The notes: generated by a model not told the origin, from the sequence alone. DNA of 64,000 nt from a plasmid (GCF_988243305.1 NZ_OZ547139.1); one strand, 5' to 3'; numbered from the stretch's first letter, positions 26,157 through 49,000 are shown. Made by a program: numbers and translations.

Positions 26157-26378
26157 TCAGTAAAACTTCACGTTCGATTTCAGGGCTTTTTCAAAGTCTT
26201 TTACAAAGGAATTTGCAAAAGTGTAATCACGATGAATAAGCTGTTTTGTTTTAGGATTTCGCCACTCAACCTGCACTGATTCGGCTGAGTATTCGATCAC
26301 CTCGATTTGATTTTTTACACCGAGATAATCAGCAATTGCCATTACGGCATTCACTTTTTTTTGGTCTGCTTCTTTCAT
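26157..26378 (-). CDS. Leading-region protein of unknown function (73 aa)
   Basis: ORF immediately preceded by a full promoter+UTR cassette. Confidence 0.6.
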   Translation of the reverse strand: MKEADQKKVNAVMAIADYLGVKNQIEVIEYSAESVQVEWRNPKTKQLIHRDYTFANSFVKDFEKALKSNVKFY

Positions 26379-26383
26379 TTCAA

Positions 26384-26468
26384 CTCCTTCGCCAGTCGGG
26401 GCGCTACCGCGAAAGACTCAACTGCCTTTCGATGTAATAATTATACGTCTAATGAGCCACTTTATCAA
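26384..26468 (-). promoter_or_regulatory. Leading-region cassette copy 2 (promoter + UTR + SD)
   Basis: Minus strand: TTGATA, 18 nt spacer, TATAAT, then atcgaaagg..tctttcg, then ggtagcgccccgactggcgaaggag, then ATG. Confidence 0.65.
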
Positions 26469-26497
26469 CTCATCAGACGTATTTTTTTATTTAATTT

Positions 26498-26513
26498 TGT
26501 TCAAATATGAACA
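26498..26513. promoter_or_regulatory. 16-bp palindrome TGTTCA-AATA-TGAACA (copy 1 of 2)
   Basis: Perfect inverted repeat, identical (as reverse complement) to 41080-41095. Confidence 0.4.
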
Positions 26514-27300: not shown

Positions 27301-27308
27301 TTTCTGTA

Positions 27309-27395
27309 CTCCTGCGCCAGTCGGGGCGCTACCGTCGAAAGACCGGATTGCCTTTCGATGTGATTATTATACGTCTAATGAGCCATACCAATCAA
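27309..27395 (-). promoter_or_regulatory. Leading-region cassette copy 3 (full) driving klcA
   Basis: TTGATT, 18 nt spacer, TATAAT, then aatcacATCGAAAGGCAATCCGGTCTTTCGACGGTAGCGCCCCGACTGGCGCAGGAG, then ATG. Confidence 0.7.
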
Positions 27396-27500
27396 GCAAA
27401 ATATTCCCGCCTACCTGAATATTTTCAGGCGGTAGAACTCTTTCCCCTGTCCATTTTTGGGGGCAGGATCACGCCTGCCCCCTTCTGATTCACATGATTA

Positions 27501-27867: not shown

Positions 27868-28278
27868 TTAGCCGTTAATCACCTTCGTGATGCACTCCAG
27901 CGCCTCAGACTCCTGCGGATAAAGTCGGCGTGCAGCTCCTTCACCAGACTGGATTTCTTCCAGCCGGATAAACTGCGCCGCCAGCGCCACGACTTTTTGC
28001 AGCGCCTCGGCATTGACCTCTATCTTTCGATCGCGGGCGGCATCTTCGCGCACCTGCTTTGCCAGGCTCCAGACGGTATCTTTTCCGACGCCATAACGGC
28101 TGTGTGAACTGCATTCCGCGATTTCTGCCAGAACGGCTTCGGCCTCATCGTCAGTGAGGTTCATATCACTGGTGCAGTCATGGACATCTTCAGCAGTCCA
28201 GATCAGAAGGCTGATCCGCTGCTGTGGTTCAAAACTATCGAGAAGCCTTGCGCAAATTTCATTTACGTTACCGTGCAT
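27868..28278 (-). CDS. Leading-region protein (136 aa), possibly DUF1380-like
   Basis: LLIWTAEDVHDC...LTDDEAEAVLAEIAE resembles the plasmid leading-region DUF1380 family (memory, low certainty). Confidence 0.55.
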   Translation of the reverse strand: MHGNVNEICARLLDSFEPQQRISLLIWTAEDVHDCTSDMNLTDDEAEAVLAEIAECSSHSRYGVGKDTVWSLAKQVREDAARDRKIEVNAEALQKVVALAAQFIRLEEIQSGEGAARRLYPQESEALECITKVING

Positions 28279-28285
28279 TGTAAAA

Positions 28286-28370
28286 CTCCTGCGCCAGTCG
28301 GGGCGCTGCCGCGAAAGACCGGATGCCTTTCGATGTGATTATTATACGTCTAATGAGCCATATCAATCAA
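28286..28370 (-). promoter_or_regulatory. Leading-region cassette copy 5 (full)
   Basis: Same architecture as the other full copies. Its -35 TTGATT overlaps the last codons of the upstream gene. Confidence 0.65.
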
Positions 28371-28599
28371 GCGATTTTTCACGCTCATAGCTGCTACAGG
28401 CAACGCTGTAGCAGTTTGCATCCAGTTCTGAAGGCCAGTCGTCACGCCCGCAACCTGACAGCAGGCAGGCGCTGAGGTGCCCAGGGCGATAGTCGAGATG
28501 CTGGCATGAGGCGCAAAGGTCATCATCTGAGATTGAGCGGCCTGCACAGATAGGCGGCGCGCCATCAGTGGGAATTTCTCGAATATGCAGCGTTGTCAC
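28363..28599 (-). CDS. Cys-rich leading-region protein (78 aa, GTG start)
   Basis: GTG 28599 lies 7 nt after the conserved AGGAG module. 8 Cys residues in 78 aa. The alternative 28350-28565 frame lacks the module. Confidence 0.5.
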   Translation of the reverse strand: MTTLHIREIPTDGAPPICAGRSISDDDLCASCQHLDYRPGHLSACLLSGCGRDDWPSELDANCYSVACSSYEREKSLD

Positions 28600-29563: not shown

Positions 29564-29571
29564 GTTTATTA

Positions 29572-29657
29572 CTCCTGCGCCAGTCGGGGCGCTACCGCGA
29601 AAAGCCTCATTGCCTTTCGATGTAATTATTATGCGTCTAATGAGCCATATTAATCAA
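29572..29657 (-). promoter_or_regulatory. Leading-region cassette copy 8 (full; -10 is CATAAT)
   Basis: TTGATT, 18 nt spacer, CATAAT, then a UTR variant (tcgaaaggcaatgaggcttttcg), then ggtagcgccccgactggcgcaggag. Confidence 0.6.
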
Positions 29658-29752
29658 GCAATAAATACATGCCCGGCATGATTTTCTCAGGCCGGGGAAT
29701 ACTTCCTTTCCCTGTTTATATTTCAGGCCGCAAATGCGGCCTGCCGTCTGCA

Positions 29753-30865: not shown

Positions 30866-30874
30866 AATTTGTTA

Positions 30875-30960
30875 CTCCTGCGCCAGTCGGGGCGCTACCG
30901 CGAAAAGCCTCATTGCCTCTCGATGTGATTATTATACGTCTAATGAGCCACATCAATCAA
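30875..30960 (-). promoter_or_regulatory. Leading-region cassette copy 10 (full)
   Basis: TTGATT, 18 nt spacer, TATAAT, then UTR and module. Confidence 0.65.
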
Positions 30961-31015
30961 GCGTTATCTGATTAATTTTCTTTGTTTTTTCCCGGACTCC
31001 TTTCCCTGTAAATTT

Positions 31016-34349: not shown

Positions 34350-34356
34350 AAGGTGA

Positions 34357-34443
34357 CTCCTGCGCCGGTCGGGGCGCTACCGTCGAAAGACCGGATTGCC
34401 TTTCGATGTGATTATTATACGTCTAACGAGCCATATAAATCAA
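34357..34443 (-). promoter_or_regulatory. Leading-region cassette copy 11 (full, near-identical to the klcA copy)
   Basis: TTGATT, 18 nt spacer, TATAAT, then ATCGAAAGGCAATCCGGTCTTTCGACGGTAGCGCCCCGACCGGCGCAGGAG. Confidence 0.7.
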
Positions 34444-34466
34444 GTTAATTTTGTTATTTTCCTGGT

Positions 34467-35385: not shown

Positions 35386-35884
35386 TACCCTTCTCCCAGA
35401 AGTCTGAATTCAGAAAAATTTTCACCTGGCGTGTGCGGGGATAGTCCTGGTGCTTCAGCCCCTCCCGCGTGTCAGACAGGTACTGCGTTTCCTGCTGCAC
35501 CTTGTTGATTTTGCCATTCCATTTGCGGGCCAGCGCCCGGTAACTCCCGTTCTCCAGCTGATAAACTTCAAACGTATACTTGTTCGGACCGCTCCAGCCT
35601 TCGTTGTAATAGACCTGTTTCATAGGATCTGCCTGATCGATGCGCCCCGTAAACATGACATCCCGGCTGCATTGCCTGAACCAGTAACCGCGGGGCATAG
35701 CCGGTGGCCGGTCGCTTATTTCCCGTCTGGATAGCGTGCCGAAAGGCTGTGAGCGCAGGTGACAACCTGATCTCAGGTCAATCGGGCATGACGTGTTGTG
35801 CAGGGACCAGCGCCGCTGCCGCAGACAATGGCTCAGGGTGATCACAGGAACGACACGGGAAACGAACAGGGGGAATGATTGCAT
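35378..35884 (-). CDS. Leading-region protein of unknown function (168 aa)
   Basis: ATG 35884 follows cassette copy 12. The stop overlaps the next gene's start. Confidence 0.5.
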   Translation of the reverse strand: MQSFPLFVSRVVPVITLSHCLRQRRWSLHNTSCPIDLRSGCHLRSQPFGTLSRREISDRPPAMPRGYWFRQCSRDVMFTGRIDQADPMKQVYYNEGWSGPNKYTFEVYQLENGSYRALARKWNGKINKVQQETQYLSDTREGLKHQDYPRTRQVKIFLNSDFWEKGND

Positions 35885-35891
35885 GGTTTTA

Positions 35892-35961
35892 CTCCTTCGC
35901 CAGTCGGGGCGCTACCGAAAAATGAGCCTTGATAATACGACGAATGAGCCATATAAATCAA
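35892..35961 (-). promoter_or_regulatory. Leading-region cassette copy 12 (shortened UTR variant)
   Basis: TTGATT, 18 nt spacer, TATTAT, then ..cggtagcgccccgactggcgaaggag. Confidence 0.6.
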
Positions 35962-36001
35962 GTTAAAAATCAGGCGGCAGAGTTTCTGCCGCTGCTGTAG
36001 G

Positions 36002-36565
36002 TCAGTACCGTGGAGCCACGTCCTTTCCTTCGCCCCATAAACGGGAAAACTCGTTCACGTAGGCTTCAGTTACTGCAGGCGCGCCGCTGATCAGCACCAC
36101 ATTTTCCGCATTACGACTGTCTGCGCTGGCGCTGAAGTTAAACGAGCCGGTCAATACGGCGCGGCGGTCAAAGACCATGAATTTATCATGCATGGCCTCG
36201 TAGTTATCGTTGATCCGCACCGCCACGCGGTTATTGGCCAGAAAGTTCACTTCGGTGTACCGGTTGTCGTTCGCTTTGCGATCGGCCACCACCACCACCG
36301 ATACGCCCCGTTTTTTTGCGGCACGCAACGCGCCGGCAACAGGACGACTGGTCAGGCTGTACGCGGCAACCAGAATCTCATGCTGCGCGTGGTCGATTGA
36401 ATCCAGAACCAGATTTAATGCGGTCCCGCCGGGTGAAAACCCGGTTTTCACTTCAGTCGCAGCTTGCGCCTGGACATCGCCGGCAATATTGCCGGCCGCT
36501 GTTACCGGGTTTGCTGCCACGGCGCCGGCGATGAGGGTCAGGGTTAACAGCACATATTTTTTCAC
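36002..36565 (-). CDS. nuc: Nuc, PLD-family (HKD) periplasmic endonuclease
   Basis: Signal peptide plus HKD motif MHDKFMVFD...GSFNFS. Confidence 0.85.
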   Translation of the reverse strand: MKKYVLLTLTLIAGAVAANPVTAAGNIAGDVQAQAATEVKTGFSPGGTALNLVLDSIDHAQHEILVAAYSLTSRPVAGALRAAKKRGVSVVVVADRKANDNRYTEVNFLANNRVAVRINDNYEAMHDKFMVFDRRAVLTGSFNFSASADSRNAENVVLISGAPAVTEAYVNEFSRLWGEGKDVAPRY

Positions 36566-36574
36566 GCAGCCCCC

Positions 36575-37018
36575 TTAATCATCATCCGGGAACAGATGCT
36601 GGACGTTCTTACGGGTTTCTTCCAGATTCCTATCCTCCGGTGCGGCCGGTTCGGGAGTCACGGCGGGACTGTTTTCCGGCGCAGCGCCGCCTGCCGGCGA
36701 CACCGTATTGCTGCCACCGCCGGTGGCCTGCAGAAACGCCTCAACCAGGCGTGCCATCTCTCCTGTATCCTGCTGCGGCAGCGTACTGCTGATGATCCGC
36801 TGAATATCCTGCATCGAGGTGCTCTCCGTCAGAAATTCAGCGATCAGGAACGGCAGGCGTTCGTCTTGTTTCATCAACGCGGCACCACAGAGCATCATGG
36901 CGCGCATCGCGCGGCCACGCTCTTTCTGAGGCAGTTTCTCAAGAAAGCCGTCTGCTACCCGGTCCGCCGCATTGCGCTCCGGGTAGATATAAAACGAGCA
37001 CTTACGGTTATCAGTCAT
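36575..37018 (-). CDS. parR: ParR-like centromere-binding adaptor (147 aa)
   Basis: The N-terminus resembles R1 ParR (..LPQKERGRAMRAMMLCGAAL..). Lies directly after parM. Confidence 0.65.
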   Translation of the reverse strand: MTDNRKCSFYIYPERNAADRVADGFLEKLPQKERGRAMRAMMLCGAALMKQDERLPFLIAEFLTESTSMQDIQRIISSTLPQQDTGEMARLVEAFLQATGGGSNTVSPAGGAAPENSPAVTPEPAAPEDRNLEETRKNVQHLFPDDD

Positions 37019-37020
37019 AC

Positions 37021-37995
37021 TCAGCCCTTCATTGCCACCATACCCAGAACCAGATCGAACTGCGGGTTATCACTGACGAAGAAACGATCGTCACTCACCC
37101 CCGTTGCCTGCTTCACTGCGCCGGCGACCAGGCTGGCACCGCCACCGACCACCATGACGTGCGTGAAGCCGGCAAAGCGGCCAACTGAATCGGTGACACG
37201 GTGCGTCAGGGCTTTTTCCCGCTCATGCAGTACCTTCATCACCTGGGCCCGCTGGTCAGCATTCTGGAGGTAACGGGAAAGAAACGTTTCGTCATTTCGC
37301 GCCTGGATCAGACGGTCGGCAAAATACGAACTGGTACGGGTGCTCACGCTGGTATCCAGTGCATGTTTTACGGCTTCGGTGATGATGGATACGCCAGTTT
37401 TAGGATCGCAATGCGTCTTGGTGAAGCCGGACATTTTGCTGCGAACGTGCGCGATATCCAGCGTGGTTCCACCGATATCCACAATCAGCAGGGAGTCCAG
37501 ATCGTCCAGATCCTTCAGCACACTGAAGCCTGCAGGGACCGACTCTGGCAGTACGCTGACTTTACGCACGGTAAAGCTCTCACGCCCCTGAACGGCCACC
37601 GCACGCTTCACGTTCGCTTTTTTCCGCTCGATGTTGGCCATATTAGGCTGATCGTTTTCATCCAGGTACTCGCCCAGCGGCAGCGTCACCACAACATCAA
37701 CCGGCTGCGGTTCAATGCCGGACTGCATCAGGGCATGGTGGATAGCGACGACATTCACATCACTGTACTGATAGCGGGTTTCCGTGGTGCGCACGGCATC
37801 CGGGCTCAGCTGGTCAAAGCTGTACTTTTCCCCGTCAATTTCATAGTTGGCGGAAGCCGGCACCGATGAATCTGTCAGCAATGTCATGGACCATTCGGGC
37901 TTGAAGCTGTTCGGACTGATCAACGTTTTCACTGCGCCTTCTTCCATCCAGGCCAGTTTGATGTTGGTGGAACCGTCATCAACAAAAATACGCAT
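37021..37995 (-). CDS. parM: ParM/StbA actin-like segregation ATPase (324 aa from MRIFVDDGSTNIKL)
   Basis: Colinear with R1 ParM as remembered (FVDDGSTNIKL, ISPNSF, SDVNVVAIHHAL, DIGGTTLDI, HVMVVGGGA). The start is moved to ATG 37995. Confidence 0.85.
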   Translation of the reverse strand: MRIFVDDGSTNIKLAWMEEGAVKTLISPNSFKPEWSMTLLTDSSVPASANYEIDGEKYSFDQLSPDAVRTTETRYQYSDVNVVAIHHALMQSGIEPQPVDVVVTLPLGEYLDENDQPNMANIERKKANVKRAVAVQGRESFTVRKVSVLPESVPAGFSVLKDLDDLDSLLIVDIGGTTLDIAHVRSKMSGFTKTHCDPKTGVSIITEAVKHALDTSVSTRTSSYFADRLIQARNDETFLSRYLQNADQRAQVMKVLHEREKALTHRVTDSVGRFAGFTHVMVVGGGASLVAGAVKQATGVSDDRFFVSDNPQFDLVLGMVAMKG

Positions 37996-37999
37996 TTTG

Positions 38000-38145
38000 A
38001 ACCTCACATTGTTTAGAAAAAAACCGTAGAAATCAGGAAAAATACAGCTTTCAAATGGATTATTACGCATCTCTGCTGACGTGTAAAGACAAAAAGATGC
38101 ACCAATATAGAAAAATACAGAAAAATACCGAATAAAAATCAACAA
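38000..38145. promoter_or_regulatory. Candidate parC-like centromere/promoter region
   Basis: Repeated gaaaaataca(g)-type motifs (38035-38047, 38110-38140) upstream of parM. The repeat structure was not rigorously resolved. Confidence 0.35.
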
Positions 38146-38235
38146 AAGACGGTCAGACCGTCCTGAAAACGGTCTGACATAGAAAGAAAAGGGATTTATT
38201 TAGATTTATACGGAAATATCAGGGAGGGATACAGA

Positions 38236-38976
38236 TTATTCCGGGAGCGTTAAATGACTGTCTGGCAGGCTGAATCGGACGCCATACTGACGACCAACAT
38301 CGAGCGCAAACACGCGCGTGTAGGTTTCTGTGGTTTCCAGCCGGGAATGCCCGGCATAAGCCTGTACAACTTTCAGCGGAACCCCATGCTGGATCAGGTG
38401 CATACAGAAGCTGTGACGGAACGTGTGGCAGGTAACAGGGATACTAAAAGTGACAGAGTCACGTTTTGCGAGGTCCAGTGCCTTCCTGATCCAGTTACGC
38501 GGCGTGTTATCACTCTGCACCGGCCAGAGCAGCTGCTGTTTACCAATACGCAGGGTGGTCAGAAATTCACGCACCTTCCTGACATATTGAGGATCGGTCA
38601 GAGGAACAAGACGGAACACCTCTTCATCCTTGCCCGGCCTGCCGCGGCCACGCTGACGCTGTTTAAGCGTCTTCAGCCGGACAAACGGCCGGGAACCGTC
38701 AAGCTGAAAGCTGGCGCCGGTCAGCGCCAGCGCCTCATTAATACGCGCGCCCGTGTTCCAGAGGGTATCGAAAAGGACCTGCTGGCGCAGGTCTGGCACA
38801 TACCGCAGAAACACCGACACCTCCGGGGCCAGCAGGTATTTGGGTAAATCAGCCTGGCTGGCCATCTCCCGCAGCGCCAGCGCATCGGCATAATCGAAGT
38901 AGGCATATGTCACGCGCCCGGTCCCGATGGCGTCGCTACGTGAATTCTGGGAAATTTGCAGGGGGAAAGTGTTCAA
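38236..38976 (-). CDS. Tyrosine recombinase (XerD/ResD-like), probable multimer resolvase
   Basis: Catalytic-region motifs HTFRHSFCMHL and GHSRLETTETYTRV. Confidence 0.8.
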   Translation of the reverse strand: MNTFPLQISQNSRSDAIGTGRVTYAYFDYADALALREMASQADLPKYLLAPEVSVFLRYVPDLRQQVLFDTLWNTGARINEALALTGASFQLDGSRPFVRLKTLKQRQRGRGRPGKDEEVFRLVPLTDPQYVRKVREFLTTLRIGKQQLLWPVQSDNTPRNWIRKALDLAKRDSVTFSIPVTCHTFRHSFCMHLIQHGVPLKVVQAYAGHSRLETTETYTRVFALDVGRQYGVRFSLPDSHLTLPE

Positions 38977-38994
38977 TTTTTTAAAATCCGCTAA

Positions 38995-39243
38995 TCAGCC
39001 GTCAGGCGACTGAATTTTATGAAATTTCTCGCTGAATTCGACCGCATCCTGCATATCAAACGTCATACTGCGGGTGGAGGCGGTCGAGCTCCAGCTTTTC
39101 CCGCCTTCGATTCTGTAAGGGGGTAGGGTCAGTCCGCGTAAAGGCTTGTCATGCCGGGCTGCAAAAACCAGCTGCCCGGCAGATACTTTTAACATCATAG
39201 CAAACATATCCGCGCTGATTCGGCGGCCTTTCAATCCACTCAT
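38995..39243 (-). CDS. Unknown 82-aa protein, 5th gene of the Mrr-like operon
   Basis: ORF with a 4-nt start/stop overlap with the upstream gene. Confidence 0.5.
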   Translation of the reverse strand: MSGLKGRRISADMFAMMLKVSAGQLVFAARHDKPLRGLTLPPYRIEGGKSWSSTASTRSMTFDMQDAVEFSEKFHKIQSPDG

Positions 39244-39725
39244 AACAACCTGTAACTGAATCCTGTACCACGACTTTTGTTGTAAATCTGCTGACCAGAC
39301 TGACCTTCATCTTCACTGAATACCACCATACGGCGGCCGTTAGTCAGTGAATCCATTTTACGCTGTGCGCCATTATCGTCATAACGCACAGGCAGGCACG
39401 CACCTTTATGGCTGTTTTCACTCTCGACGCGGAACACCCTTACCCTGACGGCGTTCTTCCGCACCTGGTCAGGATCTTCACCACTGACCACGCCCGTCAG
39501 TTTCTGAAGCGTATCTGCCGGACTGCTGTACTCAGCCTGGCTGAGATAGCGGCCGTTCGGGGTTAACCAGAAATCCTGGCTGTCACTGACACGGTAGGTT
39601 TCGCCGTGGCTGGCGATGCCTGAGACGTTACAGAAGCGGTCATAATCGGTGGGCTGTCCGGGGAGCATGGCGCACCCTGTCAGCAGCAGTGCCGGCAGGG
39701 CGGCGACGTATCCTTTGAATTTCAT
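39240..39725 (-). CDS. Lipoprotein (161 aa), 4th gene of the operon
   Basis: Lipobox LLLTGC; overlaps its neighbours. Confidence 0.6.
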   Translation of the reverse strand: MKFKGYVAALPALLLTGCAMLPGQPTDYDRFCNVSGIASHGETYRVSDSQDFWLTPNGRYLSQAEYSSPADTLQKLTGVVSGEDPDQVRKNAVRVRVFRVESENSHKGACLPVRYDDNGAQRKMDSLTNGRRMVVFSEDEGQSGQQIYNKSRGTGFSYRLL

Positions 39726-40309
39726 GTTGTCTCCTGTTCAGGATGAACCATTTCGGTCGGTGGCCGGTATCCCGGATACGGGATAAACGGCGCATCGGTG
39801 GCAATAAGGTCTAGCAGCTTCTGGCCACTGACCAGGATCATGCGGCTGTCTCCGCGAATGAGCGATTTGGTGCCTTCGCGCGTTTTGCCGGTATGGCAGA
39901 AAAAACCGCGGGCACCGGTGGCGTTCAGCAGGTCGCTGAAGTCACGGACGTGGCCAACGGCAATATAGCTGGTATAGCGTTTGGCCTGGATAAGCCAGGT
40001 CTGGCCATCAATCTTCACACGGCCATCAATCCCGCCGTCACCGGTATACCGGCGGTTACGGATCACTTCAAAGCCCCGGCGTTCAAAGCCTTCAAGCAGC
40101 AGCTCTTCGAACACAAACGGGTCAATCTTGCGCAGATAGGCAATTTTCTGCCCGAAATGCGGAAACGTATTAATTTTATCGATCACACGTACCGCGCTGG
40201 CCTGTTTCCGTTCGTGCCGGCGCCGGCGTCGCCGTGTACCCTGCCAGAGGCCATACAGCAGGATACCCGCAAGGATAAAAGAGCCGACAACATGGATGGA
40301 CTCATTCAT
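39722..40309 (-). CDS. Membrane-anchored Mrr_cat-type restriction-endonuclease-fold protein (195 aa)
   Basis: N-terminal TM helix plus an Arg-rich stop-transfer segment, then FEELLLEGFERRGFEV...YTGDGGIDGRV...WLIQAKRY (PD-(D/E)xK Mrr-like core). Confidence 0.7.
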   Translation of the reverse strand: MNESIHVVGSFILAGILLYGLWQGTRRRRRRHERKQASAVRVIDKINTFPHFGQKIAYLRKIDPFVFEELLLEGFERRGFEVIRNRRYTGDGGIDGRVKIDGQTWLIQAKRYTSYIAVGHVRDFSDLLNATGARGFFCHTGKTREGTKSLIRGDSRMILVSGQKLLDLIATDAPFIPYPGYRPPTEMVHPEQETT

Positions 40310-40550
40310 TATCGATCCTCAGCACTTCATACTTCAGCTGCCGCAGCAGCCTGTCTTTGCTCATGGTTTTCAGGGTGGGCCATTCCGCTTTCAGCGTCAG
40401 CGCGACGGTGGCAAGTTGTATGGTCCGGGGTACTGTCTCACCGTCCTCATATTTTACCAGGCTGGTACGGCTGATACCGAGCTCAGCCGCGGCGCGTTCC
40501 TGGGTCCAGTTCAGGCCCCGTCGCCACAGGATCAAGTCAAAGCCGGTCAA
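40302..40550 (-). CDS. XRE-family HTH protein (82 aa), 2nd gene of the operon
   Basis: LNWTQERAAAELGISRTSLVKYEDGE. Confidence 0.7.
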   Translation of the reverse strand: MTGFDLILWRRGLNWTQERAAAELGISRTSLVKYEDGETVPRTIQLATVALTLKAEWPTLKTMSKDRLLRQLKYEVLRIDNE

Positions 40551-41008
40551 TCCGCCGCACTCCCATGCTCAGTGCCGGGCTTCGTGCCGGCGGGTACGGC
40601 CTCTTTCCCCTGTGCCTTTTTTTCCGCCGGGGCCGGGTAGGCCGAGGCCAGTTGTGCCCGGAAATCACGCCACGCTGACAGCCAGAGCGCATCAGATACC
40701 TGGTCAGACGACAGATTAAGGACCGCATTGCGGTCACGCCAGTGGCTAAATGTCTGAGCCGGAAGGCCGGCACGCCGGCGCAACTGCTGCTCGTCGAAAT
40801 AGGCACACTGAACCAGGAGGTGTCTGACGTTCTGCGGGACAACTTCATCTCTGGCCCCTTCCGGCACAGCCAGCATCCCGGCGCTGCATATACCCTGAAT
40901 GCCCGCCTCGGTATAAATCTGCTGCAGATTGGTATCATCAACCTGCGCAGCGCCGGCGGTGTGCGCCACAACCAGCATGATGCCGGCAATAAGTGGTTTC
41001 TTTATCAT
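40547..41008 (-). CDS. Exported protein of unknown function (153 aa), 1st gene of the operon
   Basis: Signal peptide MIKKPLIAGIMLVVAHTAGAA and an Ala/Pro/Lys-rich tail. Confidence 0.55.
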   Translation of the reverse strand: MIKKPLIAGIMLVVAHTAGAAQVDDTNLQQIYTEAGIQGICSAGMLAVPEGARDEVVPQNVRHLLVQCAYFDEQQLRRRAGLPAQTFSHWRDRNAVLNLSSDQVSDALWLSAWRDFRAQLASAYPAPAEKKAQGKEAVPAGTKPGTEHGSAAD

Positions 41009-41077
41009 GCGTACTCAGCTCCTGGCCGAATCCTGGTGGACTGGCCTGTTATAATCTGCCTGTATTTATAGCCTGAA

Positions 41078-41097
41078 AATGTTCATATTTGAACATT
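41078..41097. promoter_or_regulatory. Palindrome AATGTTCA-TATT-TGAACATT in a divergent intergenic region (copy 2 of 2)
   Basis: Perfect 8-bp arms; the core is identical to 26498-26513 in the inverse orientation. Confidence 0.45.
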
Positions 41098-41148
41098 TTT
41101 TATGTATATTAATTCGACAAATTCGTCATAAACACAACAGGAGACGCG

Positions 41149-41598
41149 ATGGATATCAACTACTACGATAAACATCAGGAAGAATTTGAGGCGGTCACGC
41201 TGGCGCTGAAAGCCAATCTGGAAGAAGTTTGGGGCAGCAGCCTGAAAAATCAGGGGGAAAGCCTGGATGATCAGGTGACGTATATGAAGCTATTTGAAGA
41301 GCTGCAATACAACCTCAATCCGTACTACTTCAAGGAGAACACCTCAGCAAAAGAGATGGATGAAGATAAAGTAGCGGCCTTTGTGGCCAGAACCCGCGAC
41401 TATAAGTACGGCATTACCATTAAATCCTGGCCGGGACTCCCGCAGAAATGGCTGAAAGGCCGAATCAAACCTCTTCATCCTGTGGAAGGCACAAACCTGT
41501 GCTGGATCGACACGTCCAACATTGTGCATATCGGTGCCGATAGGCAGTTTGACGATCAATATTACCTCACCGTGACCACACAGAACGGTCAGAGTTAC
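41149..41598 (+). pseudogene. Unknown backbone gene, 3'-truncated by IS26
   Basis: The reading frame runs into the IS26 terminal IR at 41599, so the last 8 codons of the ORF-track protein are IS26 sequence. Confidence 0.6.
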
Positions 41599-42418
41599 GG
41601 CACTGTTGCAAATAGTCGGTGGTGATAAACTTATCATCCCCTTTTGCTGATGGAGCTGCACATGAACCCATTCAAAGGCCGGCATTTTCAGCGTGACATC
41701 ATTCTGTGGGCCGTACGCTGGTACTGCAAATACGGCATCAGTTACCGTGAGCTGCAGGAGATGCTGGCTGAACGCGGAGTGAATGTCGATCACTCCACGA
41801 TTTACCGCTGGGTTCAGCGTTATGCGCCTGAAATGGAAAAACGGCTGCGCTGGTACTGGCGTAACCCTTCCGATCTTTGCCCGTGGCACATGGATGAAAC
41901 CTACGTGAAGGTCAATGGCCGCTGGGCGTATCTGTACCGGGCCGTCGACAGCCGGGGCCGCACTGTCGATTTTTATCTCTCCTCCCGTCGTAACAGCAAA
42001 GCTGCATACCGGTTTCTGGGTAAAATCCTCAACAACGTGAAGAAGTGGCAGATCCCGCGATTCATCAACACGGATAAAGCGCCCGCCTATGGTCGCGCGC
42101 TTGCTCTGCTCAAACGCGAAGGCCGGTGCCCGTCTGACGTTGAACACCGACAGATTAAGTACCGGAACAACGTGATTGAATGCGATCATGGCAAACTGAA
42201 ACGGATAATCGGCGCCACGCTGGGATTTAAATCCATGAAGACGGCTTACGCCACCATCAAAGGTATTGAGGTGATGCGTGCACTACGCAAAGGCCAGGCC
42301 TCAGCATTTTATTATGGTGATCCCCTGGGCGAAATGCGCCTGGTAAGCAGAGTTTTTGAAATGTAAGGCCTTTGAATAAGACAAAAGGCTGCCTCATCGC
42401 TAACTTTGCAACAGTGCC
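41599..42418 (+). mobile_element. IS26 copy 1 (820 bp)
   Basis: 14-bp terminal IRs ggcactgttgcaaa (41599-41612) and tttgcaacagtgcc (42405-42418) flank the tnp26 sequence. Confidence 0.95.
41662..42366 (+). CDS. tnpA: IS26 transposase Tnp26 (234 aa, reference-type G184)
   Basis: [34 protein letters not shown]... recognised as Tnp26. Confidence 0.95.
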   Translation: MNPFKGRHFQRDIILWAVRWYCKYGISYRELQEMLAERGVNVDHSTIYRWVQRYAPEMEKRLRWYWRNPSDLCPWHMDETYVKVNGRWAYLYRAVDSRGRTVDFYLSSRRNSKAAYRFLGKILNNVKKWQIPRFINTDKAPAYGRALALLKREGRCPSDVEHRQIKYRNNVIECDHGKLKRIIGATLGFKSMKTAYATIKGIEVMRALRKGQASAFYYGDPLGEMRLVSRVFEM

Positions 42419-42770: not shown

Positions 42771-43418
42771 TTAACCCATGACAGCGATACCAAGACGTTC
42801 CAGGAGCAACGATGCCTGGTAGCTGTCCAGTTTGACGCCTTGCAAATCAACCCCGCGGATATCTAAATCGCCCAGTTCCGAATTGGTCAAATCACAGTGC
42901 GTAACGTTTGCTGCTCGCCAGTCGAAGGATGAAAACTCGCCGCCAGAGAGGTCTGATCCACTGAACGTTGCGCCCAGCACCTGAGTACCCATCCAGCGGT
43001 TTTCCCACAGCTCGCACTTTTCCAGTACGACTTTTGAAAAGTTGGCGTAGCTTAAGTTGGTATTGGTGATATAGGCGCTACAAAACCAGGTGCGGGTGGT
43101 GATCATATTCATAAAACTTGCGCCGCGAAAATCTGACCCTTGTGCCCGGCAGTGGCGAATTTCGATTCCCAGCGCATTGATATTCCTGAAATCAGCCATG
43201 GAGAGATCACAACTTTTGAAAATGGCATCTTTCAGGTTAGCGCGACTAAAATTACATCCTTTCTGACTTTCTCGATCATAAAACTGGCAGCCAATAAATT
43301 CAGTGCCGCTAAGGTCGGCACCCGAAAAATCACAGTTGAAAAATGTGCTATTTTCAACTTTTTCACCGGTGAACCTGTTTCTGTCAATTTTTTCGCCAAC
43401 TAACGCCAGAGTCATCAT
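42771..43418 (-). CDS. qnrB: QnrB pentapeptide-repeat quinolone-resistance protein (QnrB4-like by context; allele not verified)
   Basis: MMTLALVGEKIDRNRFTGEKVENSTFFNCDFSGADLSG... is the QnrB family; linkage to the psp operon and blaDHA is typical of qnrB4. Confidence 0.9.
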   Translation of the reverse strand: MMTLALVGEKIDRNRFTGEKVENSTFFNCDFSGADLSGTEFIGCQFYDRESQKGCNFSRANLKDAIFKSCDLSMADFRNINALGIEIRHCRAQGSDFRGASFMNMITTRTWFCSAYITNTNLSYANFSKVVLEKCELWENRWMGTQVLGATFSGSDLSGGEFSSFDWRAANVTHCDLTNSELGDLDIRGVDLQGVKLDSYQASLLLERLGIAVMG

Positions 43419-43497: not shown

Positions 43498-44472
43498 CTA
43501 AATTTGGTGTTTCTTCAGTAATGCGCGGAGTTGATGGTAGGTCAGACCTAATAATTCAGCGGCTTTTTTCTGATTAAATTTCGCCTGCTGTAAGCTGGTT
43601 TGCAAAAATTCCTTCTCCTGCTGCTGTTGGAATTCACGCAGATCCAGCGGTAGGGTTACTGATGTATGTCTGGTTTCTTGCGCCAGCGGCGGTGCGGCGT
43701 GACGCCTGAACGGGTCAATCACAATCTCATTCAGTGGGTAATCGCTGGTCCCGTGTCGGTATACCGAACGCTCCACGACGTTTTTCAGTTCACGAATATT
43801 GCCCGGCCAACGGTAGTGGAGGAGCGTTTCTTTGGCCTCATCGGTGAACCCAGGAAACAACGGTAACCCGATCTCACGGCACATCTGAATGGCAAAATGT
43901 TCAGCCATTAACATGATATCGCTTTGACGTTCGCGTAACGGGGGAAGTTGCACCACGTCAAAGGCCAGACGATCCAGCAGGTCGGCGCGGAACGTGCCTT
44001 CACTCACCATGCGTGGCAGGTCGGCGTTGGTTGCGCAAACCAGTCTTACATTGACCTGCAGAGGTTGGCTACCGCCTACGCGTTCCAGCTCTCCGTACTC
44101 AATAACGCGCAGCAGTTTTTCCTGTACCAGCATCGGGGCGGTTGCCAGTTCATCAAGAAACAGTGTGCCGCCATCGGCGCGCTCGAACCGACCTGGGTGA
44201 CGTTTCTGCGCGCCGGTAAAGGCGCCCGCTTCGTGCCCAAAGAGTTCGGAATCAAGTAAATTTTCGTTGAGCGCGGCGCAGTTAAGTGAAATAAACGGGC
44301 CTTGCCAACGGGTTGAGAGGTAGTGCAGGCGGTTGGCGATAAGCTCTTTCCCTGTTCCTCGTTCCCCAATGACCAGCACAGGTTTATCCAGCGGCGCGAG
44401 ACGAGAAACCTGCTCCAGCACTTCAATAAAGCTGTTCGCTTCGCCCAGCAGATTATCTTTGTATCCTGCCAT
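43498..44472 (-). CDS. pspF: PspF sigma54-dependent activator (324 aa from MAGYKDNLLGE)
   Basis: Near-colinear with E. coli PspF (GERGTGKE, GAFTGA, C-terminal HTH). Confidence 0.9.
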   Translation of the reverse strand: MAGYKDNLLGEANSFIEVLEQVSRLAPLDKPVLVIGERGTGKELIANRLHYLSTRWQGPFISLNCAALNENLLDSELFGHEAGAFTGAQKRHPGRFERADGGTLFLDELATAPMLVQEKLLRVIEYGELERVGGSQPLQVNVRLVCATNADLPRMVSEGTFRADLLDRLAFDVVQLPPLRERQSDIMLMAEHFAIQMCREIGLPLFPGFTDEAKETLLHYRWPGNIRELKNVVERSVYRHGTSDYPLNEIVIDPFRRHAAPPLAQETRHTSVTLPLDLREFQQQQEKEFLQTSLQQAKFNQKKAAELLGLTYHQLRALLKKHQI

Positions 44473-44571
44473 GATGAAATTCACCATTTGTTAGTGTTAT
44501 TCACCAATTTACCCTATTTATCCCGACAGGTAAAATTAGTTATTTTCAAATATTTCAATGAATTAAAAAGT

Positions 44572-47538: not shown

Positions 47539-49000
<1,462 letters not shown>

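Follow-up and report, generated by a model that had tools for sequence, protein, structure and literature searches.

The type IV, modification-dependent restriction enzyme Mrr of Escherichia coli is a soluble protein that combines an N-terminal winged-helix DNA-recognition domain with a catalytic domain of the Mrr_cat family; the D...QxK variant of the active site is typical of Mrr. Osa of the IncW plasmid pSa is reportedly a nuclease of the ParB/Srx fold that blocks transfer of rival DNA at VirD4. Epona, a single-gene anti-phage protein encoded in integron cassettes of Vibrio cholerae, joins a transmembrane (TM) region to Mrr_cat (bioRxiv 10.1101/2024.07.02.601686), and IncN plasmids of the R46/pKM101 type possess a gene called ‘mrr’ (e.g. 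on pIMP-SZ1510, WP_015344958). Here, we analyse a stretch of 64,000 nt of plasmid DNA (NZ_OZ547139.1; the window, in whose numbering all positions are given), and in particular a region of five minus-strand genes at positions 38995–41148, whose third gene, orf16, encodes a predicted membrane-tethered nuclease of the Mrr type.

The window represents the backbone of a conjugative IncL/M plasmid of the pOXA-48/pCTX-M3 type. A 2.3-kb segment covering the region shares 100% DNA identity with an IncL/M plasmid of Salmonella Senftenberg and 99.8% identity with 63.5-kb pOXA-48-type plasmids, and the region is matched by 1,369 PLSDB records, which are nearly all conjugative. The locus is the orf14-orf15-orf16-orf17-orf18-resD backbone operon of pCTX-M3/pOXA-48, that is, the same locus as in IncM pCTX-M3 and IncL pOXA-48 without a sequence difference (99.8–100% identity with the pOXA-48 type). 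The names orf14 to orf18, followed by resD, parA, parB and nuc, are those of Baffert et al. 2025 (Table S1, PMC12365149), in which Orf15 is labelled ‘HTH-XRE’, Orf16 ‘Restriction nuclease / Host defense’ and ResD, named there, ‘XerD superfamily’. Since the locus is thus already catalogued and labelled, the genes themselves are not new. However, this published work on pOXA-48 provides labels and data on non-essentiality only, without an analysis of topology or family and without a link to the coupling protein. What is added here to the annotation are the predicted topology of the nuclease, a conjugation-specific family of TM-Mrr_cat proteins and a unit of Orf16 and Orf18 that is common to IncL/M and IncN plasmids.

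Orf16 resembles E. coli Mrr in its Mrr_cat domain and the D...QxK variant, but has a membrane anchor in place of the recognition domain. With Osa it would share the concept of a plasmid nuclease acting at the inner membrane or the coupling protein in plasmid conflict, although the folds are unrelated and Osa lacks a TM anchor of the Orf16 type. The best functional precedent is Epona, in which Mrr_cat is likewise fused to an N-terminal membrane domain and which acts alone. Compared by description only, Epona differs by its holin-like domain with two TM helices and by its location in integron cassettes, whereas Orf16 has one TM helix, matches no holin family in Pfam and resides on conjugative elements. 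The IncN mrr product is ~60% identical to Orf16 over stalk and catalytic domain and has the same architecture of TM helix, basic cluster and Mrr_cat, and its gene is likewise followed by a small open reading frame (ORF) homologous to orf18. In contrast to orf16, IncN mrr lies beside kikA and genes of the type IV secretion system (T4SS), near the EcoRII restriction-modification genes, and has neither relatives of Orf14, Orf15 and Orf17 nor an adjacent recombinase gene.

The Orf16 nuclease and its family on conjugative elements

Orf16 matches the Pfam model Mrr_cat (PF04471) with 74.7 bits (cut-off 21; E=8.2e-21) across model positions 1–115 of 115, and Mrr_cat and NA-iREase1 are the only Pfam families found in the protein. 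In an alignment of 48 homologues with 41–99% identity, the invariant columns include E68/E69, D91/D95 and Q108-x-K110, and R31 and H32 are nearly invariant. The AF2 model (pLDDT 90.5; above 90 in the core) consists of one unbroken helix formed by residues 3–46 and a subsequent alpha-beta-beta-beta-alpha-beta core. Foldseek matched this core to EcoT38I, FokI, AF1548, Ecl18kI and Hjc resolvases, with a probability of 1.00, while a search with the Orf16 sequence against PDB chains returned no match, i.e. the fold search alone succeeded. Orf16 is a member of the Mrr_cat/PD-(D/E)xK superfamily with predicted catalytic activity, and its gene exhibits dN/dS ratios (non-synonymous over synonymous substitution rates) of 0.07–0.23.

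The protein contains a single hydrophobic stretch (residues 8–22) followed by RRRRRRHERK, i.e. seven basic residues follow the stretch and 0 precede it. In 101 of the 120 nearest homologue clusters, the N-terminus likewise contains a hydrophobic 18-mer that is preceded by 0 K/R and usually followed by 4–8 K/R; the remaining clusters are mostly partial sequences or have other N-termini. Based on the positive-inside rule, this K/R pattern places the catalytic domain in the cytoplasm, and Orf16 is predicted to be an N-out/C-in anchored protein with a helical stalk of ~20 residues; at most ~7 residues of the protein would be located outside the membrane. As the domain would face the cytoplasm, direct contact with the periplasmic Orf14 protein or the lipoprotein Orf17 appears implausible.

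A winged-helix DNA-recognition domain was not found at the N-terminus of Orf16 by Pfam, by PADLOC or in the AF2 model, and the match of Orf16 to the PADLOC model mREase_IV (E=2.8e-8) is confined to model positions 169–291 of 317, which represent the catalytic part. Orf16 is predicted to be a minimal PD-(D/E)xK nuclease of the Mrr type without a DNA-recognition domain. Alternatively, it could be a classical type IV modification-dependent Mrr enzyme that cuts modified incoming DNA anywhere in the cell, a notion that is backed by the Mrr_cat domain with its D...QxK motif, the weak mREase_IV match and the label ‘restriction nuclease / host defense’ in PMC12365149. We consider this improbable, as there is no recognition domain in a protein of only 195 aa, ~45 of which make up anchor and stalk in the AF2 model, and as the family is linked with conjugation modules and not with islands for restriction-modification or defence.

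We define the TM-Mrr_cat family by an N-terminal TM helix, a basic cluster (RRHxRKQ) and Mrr_cat within ~165–245 aa, an architecture that is common to the above 101 of 120 clusters and that Orf16 fits. The Orf16 family comprises 812 homologue clusters and matches 2,617 PLSDB plasmids, of which 2,027 are predicted to be conjugative, and none of 50,697 phage records carries a relative of Orf16. A pattern scan with one genome per species yielded 311 loci, 80 of which were taken with 10-kb flanks; their flanking ORFs were clustered without prior assumptions and subsequently searched for markers. The commonest neighbours turned out to be the type IV coupling protein (T4CP; 44 loci), DUF2859 (41 loci), DUF4400 (39 loci) and SLT transglycosylase and topoisomerase III (30 loci). 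A T4CP gene is present within 10 kb in 54 of the 80 loci and within 1.5 kb in 46, and at least one conjugation marker is present within 10 kb in 59. Several of the marker-free loci belong to plasmid contigs of the IncL/M or IncN type.

Distant relatives on long contigs are likewise part of conjugation modules. Those in chromosomes of Serratia and Salmonella occur in the gene order lytic transglycosylase–DUF2859–[TM-Mrr_cat]–x–coupling protein (TraD)–DUF4400, which has 4-nt overlaps and continues as a transfer operon of the mating-pair formation type MPF_G (ICEclc/SPI-7-type). The gene designated x encodes ~257 aa without a Pfam match (L016/L017, 8633–9406; L020, 8586–9365) and in L016/L017 overlaps each of its neighbours by 4 nt. 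Elsewhere, the nuclease gene is located between T4CP/Fic genes and the relaxase gene on a Rhizobium plasmid and ~6 kb downstream of the T4CP gene in an element of Bacteroidota. Family members with other neighbours occur on IncN plasmids, a P. syringae plasmid and an MPF_F plasmid of Citrobacter. The IncL/M copy, for its part, lies on a conjugative plasmid, but in the resD/par region and not adjoining the T4CP gene. Judged from these genomic surveys, TM-Mrr_cat proteins appear to constitute a large, uncurated family found almost exclusively on conjugative plasmids and integrative and conjugative elements (ICEs), with a gene that usually adjoins the T4CP gene. We regard this family-level link to the coupling protein as the most interesting result; no description of it was found in the literature. 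Searches for functional work on orf14 to orf18, on IncN mrr or on TM-Mrr nucleases of conjugative elements likewise yielded none, Epona being the one precedent that emerged.

Such a neighbourhood invites the view that the nuclease is a donor-side accessory of conjugation that works together with the T4CP, either by clearing branched or stalled DNA or as an Osa-like fertility-inhibition nuclease directed against co-resident rivals. This is the main rival to the explanation favoured below. In its favour, the T4CP gene directly adjoins in the said 46 of 80 loci, the position within the MPF_G transfer operon with its 4-nt overlaps implies co-expression with the transfer genes, the nuclease gene follows T4CP and TrwC relaxase genes in Sphingobium and the T4CP gene in Crocinitomix and Aquimarina, and the fold is similar to that of the Hjc junction resolvases. 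However, the T4CP gene of ICEclc directly follows DUF2859 with no nuclease gene in between (gene table, PMC10018362). Absence of the gene from an element that transfers without it marks it as an accessory insertion and not as a core transfer gene. In addition, neither the IncL/M nor the IncN copy adjoins a T4CP gene, and published transposon sequencing (Tn-seq) of pOXA-48 argues against a role in self-transfer, as orf16 insertions leave transfer undiminished (log2 fold change +0.71, adjusted p 0.25; PMC12365149). Overall, we rate a donor-side function as unlikely.

In the same Tn-seq study (PMC12365149), insertions in orf14 to orf18 were non-essential in donors as well as in transconjugants, and their transconjugant/donor log2 fold changes of +0.6 to +1.0 resembled those of other non-transfer genes such as blaOXA-48. 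The operon is also absent from the significant genes listed in the text of a plasmid-wide CRISPR interference (CRISPRi) screen in clinical strains. Taken together, the published Tn-seq and CRISPRi data reveal no requirement of these genes for maintenance, transfer or fitness. The known transfer regulators of pCTX-M3, orf35 and orf36, were also considered, but are located elsewhere on the plasmid.

An operon of separable genes

The stops and starts of the five genes overlap by TTGA (4 nt), ATGAATGA (8 nt), ATGA (4 nt) and ATGA (4 nt), in gene order, and Shine-Dalgarno-like sites of the GGAG/AGGA type are found 6–10 nt upstream of orf15, orf16 and orf17 (see Table 1 for coordinates). In comparison to orthologues (dS ~1), the five ORFs display dN/dS ratios of 0.06–0.45, indicating purifying selection on all of them; they are therefore all real genes and none is spurious. 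Only 18 nt without a terminator-like site separate orf18 from resD, and the first strong hairpin with a T run follows at 38178–38152, so that the transcription unit comprises six genes including resD. The full 246-aa form of ResD is kept in diverged homologues.

These data agree in large part with an earlier description of the region, a sequence-only reading that had proposed an operon of five translationally coupled genes around a membrane-anchored nuclease. The five minus-strand genes, their coordinates and their overlaps of 4, 8, 4 and 4 nt are present in the ORF scan and in the minus-strand sequence. The assignment of Orf15 as an XRE-type helix-turn-helix (HTH) protein is borne out by Pfam (HTH_3, E=2e-7), as is that of the 195-aa protein with its N-terminal TM helix and Mrr_cat core (E=8e-21 over the full model length; hydrophobic residues 8–22). 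Likewise, signal peptide and lipobox of the exported 153-aa protein and the 161-aa lipoprotein can be read from the sequence, and the perfect palindrome in the divergent intergenic region is found as a 10-4-10 inverted repeat. As to the extent of the operon, the five coupled genes stand, whereas its end at 38995 does not, since resD joins 18 nt later. Moreover, to set the locus apart from standard plasmid maintenance modules, as the same reading did, is to overlook that orf14 to orf18 are known backbone ORFs co-transcribed with the recombinase gene resD.

The same reading had suggested that the nuclease and its exported partners form one device. In its strongest version, all five proteins would constitute one envelope-spanning defence or exclusion device, in which Orf14 and Orf17 sense or gate and thereby control the nuclease. 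Translational coupling is compatible with such a device, and so is the order orf15-orf16-orf17-resD, which is kept in IncL/M-like plasmids down to ~70% nuclease identity. Specifically, metagenomic and genomic contigs whose nucleases are 79%, 72% and 70% identical retain the order HTH–nuclease–161-aa lipoprotein–(small ORF)–recombinase–ParM–ParR. However, as parA has diverged alike in these contigs (52–61% identity), the retained order reflects backbone synteny. Orf14 is only 42% identical where the other genes are at ~78–82%; its counterpart in L011 has 217 aa, and in L010 unrelated multi-TM proteins take its place.

A lineage of ~288 IncFII/MPF_I plasmids (e.g. NZ_CP034126, here L002) is instructive in this respect. 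It has kept the promoter, the palindrome and parAB as well as orf15 (93% identity), orf17 (89%) and resD (97%), but has lost orf14, orf16 and orf18 through three separate deletions, whose scars are visible at L002 4950–6000. For orf16, the deletion junction joins two TTTATCC direct repeats in frame, and the 31 codons that remain still overlap the start of orf17. Joint loss of exactly orf14, orf16 and orf18 may hint at shared work or may represent plain reductive decay.

Outside the IncL/M-like plasmids, to which Orf14 and Orf17 are confined, the genes are distributed separately: IncN plasmids contain only the nuclease and an Orf18-like gene, and ICEs the nuclease alone. By the criterion that the earlier reading had itself set, namely co-conservation in other replicons, the five-gene system fails, as the five genes occur together only in the IncL/M lineage. 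PADLOC matched no system model to the five proteins beyond bare nuclease and HTH domains. On these grounds, and in view of the predicted cytoplasmic nuclease domain, which also gives a predicted answer to the question of localisation raised in that reading, the idea of one device with exported partners is not supported, while competition, exclusion or DNA processing at the envelope are still the best guesses for the nuclease itself. Thus, a five-protein device is very improbable: almost nothing of the nuclease is predicted to be exposed to the periplasm, Orf17 exists without Orf16 in the ~288 plasmids, unrelated membrane proteins replace Orf14 in L010, the nuclease family lacks relatives of Orf14 and Orf17 in IncN plasmids, ICEs and other phyla, and neither Orf14 nor Orf17 has a match in PADLOC. 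One further observation could be cited in its support, namely that in two IncN/W-like plasmids the mrr homologue is immediately preceded by a lipoprotein gene (L004, 3582–3896; L005, 2636–2953). This lipoprotein of ~104 aa comprises a coiled-coil segment and a C-terminal CYL(D/G)GQPY…GRIC motif, and a version shortened to 77 aa is present in L003 (3610–3843). It has no sequence kinship to Orf17, and its recurrence beside the nuclease may be coincidence. Altogether, comparative genomics does not support the reading of the five genes as one system and rather suggests that the operon bundles separable functions.

Orf18 is the sole partner of the nuclease that recurs outside IncL/M. In phmmer searches it matches the ORF directly downstream of IncN mrr (E=2.9e-5; L003, 4545–4751) and, on an IncN-type plasmid, an ORF at L004 4598–4999 (E=3.6e-4), in which an Hha/YmoA domain is joined to the domain homologous to Orf18; a profile search retrieved IncL/M and IncN-type loci only. 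As this recurrence with mrr in IncN plasmids indicates, Orf16 and Orf18 look like an old unit of two genes, with orf17 as either an insertion into this unit or a gene that it has lost. Concerning the start of orf18, some RefSeq records annotate a shorter form of 67 aa and others the 82-aa form, whose start overlaps the orf17 stop and which is backed by homologues aligning from the first residues. Orf18 is possibly a small DNA-binding protein. Its sequence pattern is suggestive of an excisionase/MerR-like winged helix, but a profile search against PDB and Pfam scans of each family member found nothing to back this tentative assignment.

The pairing of Orf16 and Orf18 also raises the question of an addiction (toxin-antitoxin, TA) module, in which toxin Orf16 would be held in check by Orf15 and/or Orf18 and stabilise the plasmid together with resD and parAB. 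A small HTH gene before and a small ORF after the nuclease gene are reminiscent of many type II TA or restriction-controller layouts, IncL/M and IncN plasmids have both kept mrr paired with an Orf18-like gene, and the unit adjoins stability genes. However, transposon insertions in orf15 and orf18 are tolerated in donors and transconjugants according to the published Tn-seq data, which does not fit a type II TA system, silencing of the operon is not among the reported CRISPRi effects, and most members of the nuclease family have no Orf18-like neighbour. An addiction function therefore appears highly improbable.

The remaining proteins were characterized by scans against PADLOC-DB v2, NCBIfam, PHROGs and Pfam, which covered all five proteins and Orf13. 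In PADLOC-DB v2, no component has a full-length match, and Orf16 is matched only partially, by the nuclease domains of mREase_IV and PDC-S02. Orf14, Orf17 and Orf18 have no match in any of the four collections, and the same applies to Orf13. The N-terminus of Orf14, MIKKPLIAGIMLVVAHTAGA|AQ, reads as a Sec-type signal peptide with an A-x-A motif. Orf14 contains two conserved Cys residues, is encoded by the fastest-evolving gene of the unit (dN/dS 0.25–0.45) and has homologues in 61 clusters, apparently from IncL/M-type contigs. Orf15 matches phrog_6962 (E=7.5e-21) in addition to HTH_3, scores 34 bits with the RstR family, which is under the curated cut-off, and has only generic HTH matches in PADLOC. 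Orf17 carries the lipobox LLTGC (MKFKGYVAALPALLLTG|C), with G17 and C18 invariant in seven aligned full-length homologues, a conserved Cys32/Cys110 pair and a small beta-barrel fold; Ala at position +2 makes the outer membrane its probable destination. Its family is tiny, with 19 clusters among 5.8 billion proteins and 21 matches among 1.84 billion representatives.

A comparison of L014 (NZ_OV753989) with positions 36002–41008 of the window revealed mosaic divergence: dS amounts to 0.2–0.4 for orf14, orf16, orf17 and orf18, but to 0.03 for orf15 and 0.04–0.08 for resD-parA-parB-nuc, which points to recombination breakpoints inside the operon.

Control region, probable operator and recombinase

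Table 1. Features of the orf14–resD operon and its surroundings (positions in the 64,000-nt window)
Feature	Position	Strand	Description
orf14	40547-41008	minus	153 aa, ATG start, exported; from ORF list and sequence
orf15	40302-40550	minus	82 aa, TTG start, XRE-family HTH protein
orf16	39722-40309	minus	195 aa, ATG start, membrane-tethered predicted nuclease
orf17	39240-39725	minus	161 aa, ATG start, lipoprotein
orf18	38995-39243	minus	82 aa, ATG start, small cytoplasmic protein
resD	38236-38976	minus	tyrosine recombinase (multimer resolution), sixth and last gene; Pfam Phage_integrase E=9e-19
terminator-like hairpin	38152-38178	minus	12-bp stem, then T run; before parA promoter and centromere
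divergent intergenic control region	41009-41148		between orf14 (minus) and orf13 (plus); candidate overlapping promoters
orf13	41149-41625	plus	divergent, common control region; interrupted by IS26 (41599-42418) after codon 150 of 181
inverted repeat AAAATGTTCA-AATA-TGAACATTTT	41076-41099		perfect 10-nt arms, 4-nt spacer
promoter-like site TTCATA-17-TATATT (for orf13)	41082-41110	plus	from promoter scan
promoter candidate TTCAAA-17-TATAAA	41093-41065	minus	read by eye, under scan threshold
second exact 16-nt operator core TGTTCAAATATGAACA	26498-26513		~25 nt upstream of promoter cassette of 73-aa gene/ssb operon

The inverted repeat between orf14 and orf13, for which 0 matches are expected by chance, overlaps both promoter candidates. 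As is characteristic of XRE-autoregulated operons, an HTH_3 gene is present inside the operon and an inverted repeat lies over promoter-like sites. The repeat is kept in L002 and L007, in which Orf15 is at least 80% identical, and is exchanged for different inverted repeats in L011, in which Orf15 is 39–40% identical. From its position and this turnover with divergence of the HTH protein, the palindrome is probably the operator of the XRE repressor Orf15, which would probably act as an autorepressor. The second exact copy of the 16-nt core (chance expectation 0.18 matches at no more than one mismatch) has its spacer inverted relative to the copy at 41080–41095. We infer that Orf15 binds and controls at least two promoters, including that of the ssb operon, and the second core suggests that the same repressor perhaps modulates ssb expression. 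A role as KorC operator was dismissed for the palindrome, as the KorC consensus is reported once only, in the korC promoter (pOXA-48 Tn-seq paper).

Palindrome and nuclease might also be viewed in light of the neighbouring recombinase, with a Hjc-like junction nuclease and a DNA-bending Orf18 protein helping ResD to resolve multimers, with the palindrome as the res site. Co-transcription with resD and the Hjc-like fold are in line with such helpers, and the palindrome can be read as a 9-6-9 arrangement, like the core site of a tyrosine recombinase. Against this, resD is retained in the IncFII/MPF_I lineage while orf16 and orf18 are deleted, nuclease genes in IncN plasmids and ICEs do not adjoin a tyrosine recombinase gene, and a membrane tether would have no evident purpose in multimer resolution. 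Furthermore, the inverted second core is located 14.5 kb away and, as a recombination site, would lead to inversion; for this reason, and because turnover of the palindrome tracks the divergence of Orf15, we judge a ResD core site unlikely. Assistance of ResD is the least probable of the explanations considered here.

Additional observations concern the surroundings of the operon. The IS26 copy in orf13 swaps the end of the gene for 8 IS26-encoded residues, and a second copy is present at 48181–49000. Between both copies reside a gene for a pentapeptide-repeat (Qnr-like) protein (42771–43418) and a gene for a sigma-54 activator-like (PspF-like) protein (43498–44487), the identities of which were read from their translations only. 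In the segment 25212–35966, a promoter-plus-leader cassette of ~95 nt is repeated six to ten times upstream of successive minus-strand operons, e.g. at 26377–26471, 27303–27397, 28278–28372, 29565–29659, 30868–30962, 34351–34445 and 35881–35966. On the minus strand it consists of TTGATT-17-TATAAT, a conserved leader with a hairpin-like segment (CGAAAGGC…CTTTCG) and GCGCAGGAGT ahead of the ATG. The cassette is similar to the ‘CUP’ upstream regions that recur in IncN plasmids and is lacking in front of the orf14 operon.

Proposed function and implications

The explanation that we favour, with moderate confidence, is that of a repressor-controlled backbone operon of separable genes, in which Orf16 acts as a tethered competition, exclusion or defence nuclease at the inner membrane. 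Transcription would start at the promoter under the 10-4-10 repeat, most likely the operator of Orf15 with a second copy in front of the ssb operon, and would yield a bundle composed of the envelope proteins Orf14 and Orf17, the recombinase ResD and the two-gene nuclease unit of Orf16 and Orf18 that is common with IncN plasmids. The single N-terminal helix would keep the catalytic domain of Orf16 at the cytoplasmic face of the inner membrane. As tethering limits its reach to DNA at the membrane, Orf16 would cut DNA that crosses or is docked at the inner membrane, for example the DNA of a rival element at the coupling protein or at the site of entry, or the genome of a phage that depends on pili or a T4SS, while nucleoid and resident plasmid would largely be spared. 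Orf16 may thus represent an autonomous, non-specific and dispensable accessory of the conjugation apparatus, an idea that derives from the restriction of the family to conjugative elements, its patchy presence, the clean loss in one lineage, the dispensability of the gene in standard assays and the precedent of Epona.

Several points weigh against this explanation. The nuclease activity of Orf16 is predicted from sequence and model only, tethering is the sole known means by which the plasmid's own DNA would be spared, and no defence-system model in PADLOC matched Orf16 beyond its catalytic domain. The linkage to the T4CP gene could equally mean a role in DNA transfer of the element itself, and as IncL/M orf16 is far from the T4CP gene, this family linkage may not carry over to the present case. 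On the regulatory side, the palindrome is assigned to Orf15 only because of its position and of the change in operator sequence that accompanies divergence of the HTH protein, and Orf8 and Orf20, other XRE proteins of the plasmid, could bind the palindrome instead.

If the favoured explanation is extended to the family, the TM-Mrr_cat nucleases, including Orf16, IncN Mrr and the MPF_G ICE gene product, might be an unrecognised, widespread partner of the T4CP that polices DNA at the transfer channel and owes its specificity to membrane position instead of to the sequence or modification of the DNA. Such a partner would destroy DNA of rival plasmids or mobilisable elements, in the form of fertility inhibition or exclusion, or the genomes of phages that enter via the conjugative apparatus. 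We put this forward tentatively, as a generalisation that has distinctly fewer chances of being correct than the explanation for the operon itself.

If nothing of this kind follows, the locus amounts to dispensable backbone ORFs that are already catalogued. Nevertheless, pOXA-48 and IncN plasmids rank as major carriers of carbapenemase genes, with a backbone in which most genes lack an assigned role. Adjacency to the T4CP gene opens up tests in pOXA-48, in pKM101/R46 and in ICEs of the SPI-7/ICEclc type. Should the nuclease indeed restrict rivals, mobilisable elements or pilus-specific phages, this would help to explain plasmid coexistence and would bear on the success or failure of phage- or conjugation-based tools directed against pOXA-48 and IncN plasmids. 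In that case, discrimination between self and non-self by position would join the modes that are based on sequence and on modification.

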